Below, piece by piece: positions 32,965 to 51,137 of a stretch of DNA of 64,000 nucleotides. The notes beneath the pieces are model-generated. The model saw only the letters and a list, made by a program, of their open reading frames with translations. It was not told where the DNA came from and made no database searches. The stretch is from a virus (lineage: Duplodnaviria; Caudoviricetes). The stretch is from positions 167,065 to 231,064 of the IMG/VR virus record IMGVR_UViG_3300028591_000079. One strand, given 5' to 3'. Position 1 is the first letter of the stretch, and every line of letters starts with the position of its first letter. A program made the translations under genes and the position numbers.

Positions 32965-32993
32965 GAAGGTTTTTCGTTGAGTTCTATAATAAC

Positions 32994-33656
32994 ATGAGAA
33001 AACTAGAAAAAGTATTTAACTACAGAAATGTTATTGAAGGGAAGCAAGTTGATTATTTGGCAGCCCTTAGAGACTCATCTTTTTTCAATTTATATGGTAT
33101 TCCTGCAGAAGTTAAAATACCAAAAAAAGAAAACAATTTAGATGAGTATATAAATTATGTAGATGATGAATGGGATATACAAAAAACAGTTGTGGTGCCA
33201 AAATTTACAGAATATCGCAGTATTTTGTCTCAACTTGGTCAAACTGCAGAAGATGAATATCCATTAGAAATACTCATTCCATCTGCTTTACATTTACCTA
33301 GGAACTCAAGAATAATTTTGGATGAATATAACTCTCACGAAGATAAAATCGCAAGAGAATGGAGAGTTTTATCTACAGAATCCAAACAACTTAGTAACAG
33401 TAAAACATATACTAGAATTGCTTATTGTGCTCCAGCTCGTGCAAGTATATACAAAACAGCAAGAGTTGAAAGCACCGTGGTTATAACTGATTTTGAACCC
33501 ATAAGCGATTATGTGATTTTACAAGATATAACAGCATCATCAGTAAATTATTTAAATGTTATACCTGTTGCTAATACTAAAACAAAAGATCAAACAAGCG
33601 CAGAATCAACCAATGAATTTACTTGGAAGGTTCGTTTGCCATCAATATTACACTAA
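32994..33656 (+). CDS. Hypothetical structural protein (possible head-closure protein)
   Basis: First gene after GTTCTA at 32981; NLYGIP.EV.IP and REWRV resemble head-completion proteins. Confidence 0.35.
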   Translation: MRKLEKVFNYRNVIEGKQVDYLAALRDSSFFNLYGIPAEVKIPKKENNLDEYINYVDDEWDIQKTVVVPKFTEYRSILSQLGQTAEDEYPLEILIPSALHLPRNSRIILDEYNSHEDKIAREWRVLSTESKQLSNSKTYTRIAYCAPARASIYKTARVESTVVITDFEPISDYVILQDITASSVNYLNVIPVANTKTKDQTSAESTNEFTWKVRLPSILH

Positions 33657-50664: not shown

Positions 50665-50693
50665 TTGACTTCTGAAAATTTTAGTTCTATAGT
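50665..50693 (+). promoter_or_regulatory. Sigma70 promoter for the leader peptide and tRNA operon (overlaps a GTTCTA motif)
   Basis: TTGACT (50665-50670), 17 bp, TATAGT (50688-50693); predicted +1 is about 50700, the A of ATG. Confidence 0.75.
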
Positions 50694-50699
50694 AATATT

Positions 50700-50762
50700 A
50701 TGATGAAAATGAATAATAACTTTTGGCATCACTTTCCTAAAACCCATGGAGGTGCCTGCTAA
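50700..50762 (+). CDS. Attenuator leader peptide MMKMNNNFWHHFPKTHGGAC
   Basis: Leaderless 20-codon ORF; control codons TTT TGG CAT CAC TTT CCT match the four downstream tRNAs. Confidence 0.8.
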   Translation: MMKMNNNFWHHFPKTHGGAC

Positions 50763-50824
50763 TCATATTTATTTTCATATAAAAGATTCAGCCCTCCAAG
50801 AATAAAATCTGGAGGGTTCTTTTT
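50725..50824 (+). promoter_or_regulatory. Transcription attenuator (protector / antiterminator / terminator)
   Basis: 1:2 GGCATC (50725-30) with GGTGCC (50751-56); 2:3 TGGAGG (50747-52) with CCTCCA (50793-98); 3:4 AGCCCTCCA (50790-98) with TGGAGGGTT (50810-18) followed by CTTTTT. Confidence 0.8.
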
Positions 50825-50826
50825 GT

Positions 50827-50903
50827 GGCGAATATAGCTCAGTTGGTAGAGCATCGGTTTGTGGTGCCGAGTGTCACCAGTTCGAACCTGGTTATTCGCC
50901 CCA
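50827..50903 (+). tRNA. tRNA-His(GTG) with G-1:C73 and encoded CCA
   Basis: Acceptor GCGAATA/TATTCGC, anticodon loop TTGTGGT, T-loop TTCGAAC. Confidence 0.95.
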
Positions 50904-50980
50904 CGGGGTGTAGCTCAGTCTGGTAGAGTGCTTGCTTTGGGAGCAAGATGTCGGAGGTTCGAACCCTCTCACCCCGACCA
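50904..50980 (+). tRNA. tRNA-Pro(TGG)
   Basis: Acceptor CGGGGTG/CACCCCG, anticodon loop TTTGGGA, CCA end; abuts tRNA-His with no spacer. Confidence 0.95.
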
Positions 50981-50986
50981 GTTTTA

Positions 50987-51062
50987 GGCTAGGTAGCTCA
51001 GTTGGTAGAGCAAGGGACTGAAAATCCCTGTGTCAGTGGTTCGATCCCGCTCCTAGCCACCA
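50987..51062 (+). tRNA. tRNA-Phe(GAA)
   Basis: Acceptor GGCTAGG/CCTAGCC, anticodon loop CTGAAAA, CCA end. Confidence 0.95.
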
Positions 51063-51063
51063 T

Positions 51064-51137
51064 ACATCTGTCGTTCAATAGTAGGACTCTGGTCTCCAAA
51101 ACCAGCAATTGGGGTGCAAATCCTCACAGGTGTGCCA
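51064..51137 (+). tRNA. tRNA-Trp(CCA)
   Basis: Acceptor ACATCTG/CAGGTGT, anticodon arm CTGGT-CTCCAAA-ACCAG, T-loop TGCAAAT, G73-CCA. Confidence 0.9.

Follow-up and report, generated by a model that had tools for sequence, protein, structure and literature searches.

How does a phage that carries its own tRNA genes control when those tRNAs are made? The question is raised by a locus in the final 64 kb of a 231,064-bp IMG/VR virus record (IMGVR_UViG_3300028591_000079; 32% G+C; completeness estimate 96%), a stretch of 64,000 nucleotides that we refer to as the window. Here, an array of four tRNA genes is preceded by a promoter, a 20-codon open reading frame (ORF) and an intrinsic terminator. We consider it probable that this leader attenuates transcription of the phage tRNA operon by a ribosome-mediated, leader-peptide mechanism, as an original prediction made from the DNA alone had proposed. 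The anatomy of the locus, its conservation and covariation among relatives, and the geometry of ribosome masking speak for that proposal, whereas the pairing register first given for one helix did not hold, the tracking of tRNA content by leader codons is incomplete, and three of the control residues were probably inherited from an ancestor.

A leader ORF in front of four tRNA genes

The main features are as follows, in window coordinates.

50665..50693, + strand: promoter TTGACT-17-TATAGT (consensus scan)
50700..50762, + strand: leader ORF of 20 codons plus stop, MMKMNNNFWHHFPKTHGGAC (read from the sequence; kept in 14 variants)
50721..50738, + strand: control codons 8-13, UUU UGG CAU CAC UUU CCU (F W H H F P; unique window in the genome)
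50790..50824, + strand: intrinsic terminator with a 9-bp stem (AGCCCUCCA/UGGAGGGUU), an 11-nt loop and C + U5 (sequence and minimum free energy [MFE] fold)
50828..51137, + strand: tRNA array His(GTG), Pro(TGG), Phe(GAA), Trp(CCA) (ARAGORN; Rfam tRNA, 50-69 bits)
50828-50903, + strand: tRNA-His(GTG) (ARAGORN, Rfam tRNA)
50904-50980, + strand: tRNA-Pro(TGG) (ARAGORN, Rfam tRNA)
50987-51062, + strand: tRNA-Phe(GAA) (ARAGORN, Rfam tRNA)
51064-51137, + strand: tRNA-Trp(CCA) (ARAGORN, Rfam tRNA)

Direct reading of the DNA confirmed that the central codons of the ORF call only for Phe, Trp, His and Pro, the four amino acids carried by the tRNAs that follow. FWHHFP is the sole six-codon window in any of the six frames of the 231-kb genome that consists only of F, W, H and P and contains all four, and such a window is found in about 1.4e-4 of random 128-nt sequences. 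A match of FWHHFP to the array by chance is unlikely. Very many windows were read, so a coincidence of the order of 1e-4 is expected somewhere, and both the ORF and its fit to the array might be accidental. However, 14 variants keep the element and show covariation, it has no counterpart elsewhere in the genome, and trp leaders are its homologues; we give an accident next to no credence.

Similarly, the terminator and the four cognate tRNAs were found where they had been predicted, 3 nt past the T run. The stem arms of the terminator lie at 50790-50798 (AGCCCUCCA) and 50810-50818 (UGGAGGGUU), followed by C + U5 at 50819-50824; the consensus scan missed it, the loop being longer than 8 nt. Across variants, the G+C-rich stem is 98% paired, with one compensatory change from C-G to U-A, and the tail has five to seven U residues. 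The gap of 3 nt between the end of the terminator and tRNA-His leaves no space for a further promoter.

To collect relatives, we searched a large protein collection for homologues of an 81-residue protein encoded upstream (77-98% identity) and of an ASCH protein encoded downstream, the latter having many homologues, several of them on contigs of ~230 kb. The contigs encoding these homologues, along with one metagenome scan that used the conserved leader start, yielded 14 distinct versions of the leader. The relatives come from gut and rumen. The frame, which homologues might have lost if it had no function, is retained in 14/14 variants, each of which has 20 codons without an insertion or deletion and ends at the same place with TAA or TAG. 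Specifically, F8, W9, H10, F12 and P13 are invariant, a single UGG is present in every variant, and codon 11 specifies H, Q or C. F12 and P13 are kept despite synonymous changes, as is His16, which lies in an unpaired loop.

The promoter likewise agrees with the expectation of a sigma70 promoter whose +1 falls near the ATG of the short ORF. TTGACT (50665-50670) and TATAGT (50688-50693) are separated by 17 nt, and the -10 hexamer sits within a phage motif, GTTCTATA(A/G)TAA. In all 14 leader variants, six bases of variable sequence separate GTTCTATA(A/G)T from the ATG, meaning that the distance from the -10 element to the start codon is 6 nt in 14/14 cases although the spacer sequence varies. 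The sequence AGTTCTAT occurs in 39 copies in the genome, compared with ~16.5 expected. One copy of the promoter motif, GTTCTATAAT at window positions 32981-32995 (genome 200045), is only 3 nt before an ATG, and this phage may often make transcripts that are leaderless or nearly so. The leader ORF, with its ATG at about +1, has no Shine-Dalgarno sequence, unlike the phage's own genes, which show a G peak at -11 to -8. Leader peptides encoded by leaderless transcripts have been documented in Deinococcus deserti and Streptomyces lividans, where they precede aminoacyl-tRNA synthetase genes (PMC4007540, PMC8079986).

Alternative RNA folds and the position of the ribosome

Is the leader RNA built to respond to a ribosome? 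Its MFE is -38.5 kcal/mol (z = -4.76 relative to shuffled versions), and the RNAalifold consensus of the 14 variants contains helix P0, helix 1:2 and the terminator. The strands involved, other than the terminator already listed, are these.

50703..50715, + strand: 5' strand of P0, AUGAAAAUGAAUA (MFE fold and RNAalifold)
50723..50736, + strand: segment 1, the 5' strand of helix 1:2, UUGGCA.CACUUUC (pairing across variants)
50747..50764, + strand: segment 2, UGGAGGUGCCUGCUAAUC, which includes the stop codon (50760-50762) and has segment 1 or 3 as partner (pairing and masking folds)
50766..50778, + strand: 3' strand of P0, UAUUUAUUUUCAU, between segments 2 and 3 (MFE fold and RNAalifold)
50785..50798, + strand: segment 3, GAUUCAGCCCUCCA, serving as the 3' strand of the antiterminator and the 5' arm of the terminator (pairing and masking folds)

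The original prediction described three mutually exclusive helices of the trp/his type. That arrangement of 1:2, 2:3 and 3:4 pairings stood, but the register proposed for helix 1:2 did not. GGCAUC/GGUGCC is present in the MFE fold of the single sequence, yet it breaks in five relatives. The conserved register pairs nt 24-29 with nt 58-63 (UUGGCA/UGCUAA) and nt 31-37 with nt 49-55 (CACUUUC/GGAGGUG). In this register, 99.5% of cells are paired, as opposed to 25-54% when the partner strand is slid, and two base pairs show two-sided changes that passed through a wobble pair (C-G, U-G, U-A in one and A-U, G-U, G-C in the other). With the compensatory pair in the terminator, there are three two-sided changes overall. 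The 3:4 terminator was borne out by the relatives, and the 2:3 antiterminator stayed pairable in them. The antiterminator, made of GGAGG/CCUCC, CUG/CAG and AAUC/GAUU, is 92% paired (22-57% when slid); changes in it yield wobble pairs, and its core is invariant and hence offers no test of covariation.

Helix P0, which the first reading had overlooked, joins 50703-50715 to 50766-50778 through 13 bp (nt 4/5-16 with nt 67-78/79 in RNAalifold). Variation in P0 consists only of one-sided switches from G-C to G-U, and in L029 and L033 there is an equivalent long P0-like helix in a shifted register. Considered together, P0, an 8-bp helix 1:2 (nt 30-37/49-56) and the terminator are 93% paired, compared with ~50% when the 3' partner is slid, and their observed covariation score was reached by 0/500 shuffles.

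The placement of the codons within these helices is what would make the leader sensitive to translation. The 5' strand of helix 1:2 (nt 24-37) nearly coincides with codons 8-13 (nt 22-39), and the stop codon lies in its 3' strand. We modeled the effect of a ribosome in eight variants by blocking the RNA that it covers and folding what exists before the 3' arm of the terminator is made. With codons 8-12 in the A site, segment 2 was freed and the antiterminator was predicted to form in 8/8 variants, with a 2:3 helix of -12 to -18 kcal/mol, in keeping with the outcome proposed beforehand for folding with and without the footprint. With codon 13 in the A site, the antiterminator still formed but was weaker (-8 to -14 kcal/mol). 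When the A site held codon 16 or the stop codon, the 2:3 helix reached about -5 kcal/mol at most, and it was the terminator that formed. In the absence of a ribosome there was no antiterminator; P0, helix 1:2 and the terminator folded at -37 to -42 kcal/mol, and the terminator again formed. In these models, the outcome is the logic of the trp attenuator.

A mechanism can be proposed along these lines. Transcription would start at or beside the ATG of the 20-codon ORF. A fast ribosome that reaches the stop would cover segment 2, and with no ribosome loaded segment 2 would be paired with segment 1; in either case, the terminator would form 3 nt before tRNA-His and the tRNAs would not be made. 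A ribosome lingering on codons 8-13 (Phe, Trp, His, His/Cys/Gln, Phe, Pro) would instead cover segment 1, so that segments 2 and 3 pair, the terminator is blocked and the polymerase reads into tRNA-His, -Pro, -Phe and -Trp. Slow decoding of any one of these codons would thus open the gate. Because the tRNAs that are produced decode the control codons, the circuit would be a self-limiting negative feedback on their own supply. We infer that the ORF is translated and that stalling at its control codons controls readthrough; the purpose would presumably be to adjust the supply of tRNAs to what is needed or to offset their depletion, and, more speculatively, to act against anticodon nucleases.

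An alternative is that the RNA is a structured noncoding leader in which the ORF is incidental. The long P0/P1 hairpin and the terminator could serve in processing or in RNA stability, or could gate expression in time, with an antitermination factor from phage or host opening the gate. RNA structure by itself would explain much of the conservation, with 39/63 ORF positions paired and the fold z-score given above, and the Shine-Dalgarno signal seen at the phage's own genes is missing here. Furthermore, retention of the open frame is not significant on its own (P = 0.37-0.86 per lineage under random substitution). Variable columns in the ORF do fall disproportionately at third codon positions (4/4/11 by codon position; P = 0.024), but this coding signature is weakened because several of the synonymous changes are also neutral for RNA structure (among them, in helix 1:2, TGC to TGT and the stop-codon change from TAA to TAG). 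Apart from the third-position bias, these points count against a translated leader or are neutral. Other observations are harder to reconcile with a noncoding RNA: the peptide motif is common to genuine trp-operon leaders, as described below; the ATG is fixed relative to the -10 element; His16 is kept through a synonymous change outside any helix; and the stop codon is placed where a terminating ribosome covers segment 2, which has a conserved alternative partner in segment 3. On balance, we regard a noncoding leader as improbable.

The peptide might also be the functional product, with the ORF and terminator forming a small-peptide gene and the tRNAs arising by leaky readthrough. The peptide sequence is conserved among variants, including its C-terminal HGG.C. 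Nevertheless, codons 1-10 are nearly invariant at the nucleotide level, with variation confined to codon 5 (L033) and position 3 of codon 7, which points to constraints on the RNA. In addition, the alternative 2:3 pairing would lack a role in such a gene, and the short gap before tRNA-His leaves no room for separate transcription of the array. We consider this explanation very improbable, and less probable than a noncoding leader. The evidence reviewed so far fits better with attenuation of the tRNA operon.

Codon content, tRNA content and a likely trp-operon ancestry

If the leader senses the tRNAs that it controls, its codons should change along with the array. The arrays of relatives are variants of His-Pro-(Met)-Phe-(Lys)-(Cys)-Trp, and they are associated with the control codons as follows.

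FWHHFP: His-Pro-Phe-Trp (window, L035/L037)
FWHCFP: His-Pro-Phe-Cys-Trp (L021-24; L017, L027, L031 [weak tRNA, anticodon GCA, Rfam 32.8 bits])
FWHCFP: His-Pro-Met-Phe-Cys-Trp (L029)
FWHCFP: His-Pro-Met-Phe..., truncated, with a tail 95% identical to L006 (Pro-Met-Phe-Lys-Cys-Trp) (L033)
FWHCFP: His-Pro-Phe-Trp, without tRNA-Cys (L039; exception)
FWHQFP: His-Pro-Trp, without tRNA-Phe or tRNA-Gln (L019/L020; exception)

Where FWHCFP precedes a His-Pro-Phe-Cys-Trp array, the codons specify exactly the five amino acids of the array. The expected covariation of leader codons with tRNA content was seen only in part: a Cys codon at position 11 coincides with tRNA-Cys in 3/4 array types, and the exceptions are L039 and L019. 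From these comparisons, the tracking is suggestive, not proven.

The leader also has relatives in bacteria. The MNNNFW near the N terminus of the phage leader (MMKMNNNFW) is common to Bacteroidota trp-operon leaders (MNNNFWWW), and when species genomes were scanned for MNNNFWWW, four loci emerged, every one in Bacteroidota. In Chryseobacterium, the gene after the leader begins, by eye, like anthranilate synthase component I (TrpE). In three Bacteroidales metagenome-assembled genomes, two of them from rumen and sheep rectum, MKVMNNNFWWWQTYDRMS and a stop codon are followed by a terminator, a tryptophan-synthase-beta-like gene (Pfam PALP) and anthranilate synthase; at L045, trpB and trpE were confirmed downstream of the leader. 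The bacterial leaders begin with MKMNNNFWWWH (L030), MKVMNNNFWWWQ (L044-46) and MLNMNNNFWWWH (L043). The L030 leader, which came from the metagenome scan, reads MKMNNNFWWWHSNFLQP to its stop codon, with a terminator after it; PIN and DUF2281 genes lie upstream, and the setting is bacterial. Over its first 24 nt it agrees at every position (24/24) with the phage leader read from the second ATG, and its FWWWHSNFLQP has the residues F, W, H, F and P in this order already. Leaders of the form M..MNNNFWWW[H/Q] with a terminator lie at L043:1400-1720(-), L044:7600-8000, L045:4150-4500(-), L046:7100-7500 and L030:1-140(-). A Bacteroid-trp motif is in Rfam (Weinberg et al. 2010; PMC2864571), and the bacterial MNNNFWWW loci matched no Rfam family at gathering score, Bacteroid-trp included.

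The phage and bacterial leaders share the MNNNFW start and a terminator after the leader. They differ in their Trp codons, three in the bacteria and one in the phage, and in what lies downstream, which is trpB/trpE or trpE in the bacteria and tRNAs in the phage. Judged from these sequences, the phage element looks like a trp-operon leader in which the Trp run has been cut to a single codon followed by H-(H/C/Q)-F-P. This kinship supports the view that the ORF encodes a genuine leader peptide, and it hints at a Bacteroidota host for the phage.

The same ancestry raises another explanation, that the attenuator is genuine but is not tuned to the four tRNAs. A leader acquired from the trp operon of a Bacteroidota host might report the general coupling of translation and transcription, or only Trp-tRNA, with F, H and P being inherited or incidental. 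Such an origin would account for MNNNFW(WW)H being a bacterial trp-leader motif, for the order of residues already present at L030, for the tolerance of H, Q and C at codon 11, and for the violations of the codon-tRNA match at L019 and L039. Yet only one codon is left of the three-codon Trp run, and no relative has regained the others. Furthermore, the control window contains only amino acids of the array in the phage, in L035/L037 and in the Cys-containing arrays, no other stretch of the genome resembles it, and F12 and P13 persist in every variant although their codons have changed synonymously. An untuned leader seems unlikely to us, if a little less so than a noncoding one.

Beyond the coding statistics discussed above, several observations weigh against attenuation tuned to the array. 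F, W and H were probably inherited from the trp-leader ancestor, not evolved to fit the tRNAs. L039 has a Cys codon without tRNA-Cys, and L019 has two Phe codons and a Gln codon with neither cognate tRNA. The association of the Cys codon with tRNA-Cys is not significant (Fisher P = 0.11 by array type), and the sequences are related and not independent. The replacement of His by Cys at codon 11 (CAC to UGU) involved three transitions, two of them later fully compensated; since each preserves a pair in helix 1:2, drift of the RNA could explain it. There are only one or two control codons per amino acid, so any single tRNA would be sensed weakly. The Rfam families Trp_leader (RF00513), His_leader (RF00514) and Phe_leader (RF01859) scored 14.8-15.5 bits on the phage leader against cut-offs of 41-55, Trp_leader reaching 15.5 bits against a cut-off of 41. 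Finally, the phage's second tRNA array has a promoter immediately in front of it and no leader.

Despite these points, we still favor an attenuator that gates the tRNA operon. In a broader form, which we hold only tentatively and with somewhat more doubt than conviction, giant phages would regulate their own tRNA supply by multivalent leader-peptide attenuators, this one having been exapted from a host trp-operon leader by rewriting the Trp run to one or two codons per array tRNA. The ribosome would sense decoding speed, and the array would be switched on when host tRNAs of those specificities run short, be it from codon demand, from shut-off of the host or from defenses that target tRNAs.

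Known attenuators and the genomic setting

How does this leader compare with attenuators that have been described? It has a short ORF with a start codon at the 5' end, a terminator before the first gene, exclusive helices, cognate codons, and control and stop codons placed as attenuation would require. As in trpL of E. coli and Salmonella, the control codons lie in segment 1, the 1:2, 2:3 and 3:4 helices exclude one another, and the stop codon is positioned so that a terminating ribosome covers segment 2. Unlike trpL, which controls biosynthetic enzymes, the phage leader precedes a tRNA array; it has one Trp among six mixed control codons, no Shine-Dalgarno sequence, an ATG at about +1 and an extra helix that joins the start region to the stretch after the stop codon. 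The ilvGMEDA leader senses Ile, Leu and Val, and the thr leader senses Thr and Ile, with many codons per amino acid. The phage leader resembles these in sampling several amino acids, such that slow decoding of any of them favors readthrough, but it does so with one or two codons each, and its products are the decoding tRNAs instead of enzymes for synthesis of the sensed amino acids. Attenuation of genes of the translation apparatus is seen in pheST (pheM leader) and in the leaders of D. deserti and S. lividans, all of which control synthetases, that is, proteins, where the phage leader would control tRNA genes. T-boxes also attenuate transcription according to the state of a specific tRNA. However, they bind uncharged tRNA through a specifier codon, act independently of translation and control synthetase, biosynthesis or transporter genes, whereas the phage leader would be ribosome-based; an Rfam search of the phage leader gave no T-box match, even at E up to 10.

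To our knowledge, the leader-peptide attenuators described to date all control protein-coding genes, for amino acid synthesis, transport or tRNA charging. The claim that no translational attenuator has been described for a phage tRNA operon is in line with the literature that we searched, in which we found no published leader-peptide attenuation of tRNA genes. The mechanism is known in kind, and it is the proposed output, four tRNA genes, that is new. If the tRNA genes are gated in this way, the regulated product is the molecule that the sensor measures. This would explain how large phages avoid making unneeded tRNAs, and it would connect the tRNA arrays of phages, in a concrete way that can be tested, with the shortage of tRNAs during infection, an open question for phage tRNAs and tRNA-targeting defenses. 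The locus also offers a traceable origin in a host trp-operon leader, along with a natural series of 14 variants that includes compensatory changes and the gain and loss of tRNAs.

The 231-kb genome carries eight tRNAs in two arrays according to ARAGORN. In the other array (genome 90763-92347), a TTGACT..AGTTCTAT promoter lies directly before tRNA-Ala, with no leader ORF and no terminator, and the phage genome thus holds no internal replicate of the attenuator. That array (G000:C1:90720-92350, outside the window) comprises Ala, Asn, Thr and Leu by ARAGORN, plus at least three additional tRNA-like stretches that ARAGORN missed, with anticodons that by eye resemble UUC, GUA and UCU; an inserted ORF separates its parts.

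Related loci show further variation. In L019 (3205-4392 of a 230,868-bp contig) and at the same coordinates in L020, a TnpB / IS605 OrfB gene is inserted between the 81-residue gene, cut to 72 residues, and the leader, leaving the -10 region and the leader of L019 intact. The L019 locus has lost tRNA-Phe, and a short hairpin remnant is present after tRNA-Pro. The tRNA-Trp(CCA) genes at L035:1158-1260, L039:1248-1345 and L019:4814-4912 are ~99 nt long, with an insertion of ~25 nt after the anticodon stem, and the relatives that carry them have tRNA-Pro genes of 91-97 nt; the additional sequence may represent long variable arms or intron-like inserts. In L008, a close relative, a 96-nt tRNA-like gene with anticodon UCA (203-298; tRNA-SeC by ARAGORN) lies just upstream of the ASCH gene and could be a suppressor tRNA reading UGA.

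Other searches helped to delimit this group. Among cultured phages there were no close relatives: blastn matched tRNAs only, and tblastn with neighboring genes gave only distant matches. Within IMG/VR, a degenerate NFWHHFP pattern had three matches, all by chance in coding DNA; a scan with the His-Pro junction had none; and a scan with the conserved leader start recovered only the window's own record. MNNNFW had at least 119 matches in IMG/VR, none followed by tRNAs, and the match at L050 lies in apparent coding DNA. A 130-residue neighbor protein had no matches in IMG/VR, an ASCH homologue there (L002) has no tRNAs upstream, and the array is absent from the ASCH-based contexts L009-L016.

The genes neighboring the tRNA locus encode a ThyX-like thymidylate synthase, the ASCH protein, an acetyltransferase, an HNH endonuclease and tail-fiber proteins. 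The ASCH-acetyltransferase pair is also encoded by L016 (1-6336), a bacterial contig of higher G+C with GAPDH, MiaA and MCRA genes. Its ASCH protein is 76% identical to that of the phage, a likeness that suggests gene exchange between these phages and bacteria.

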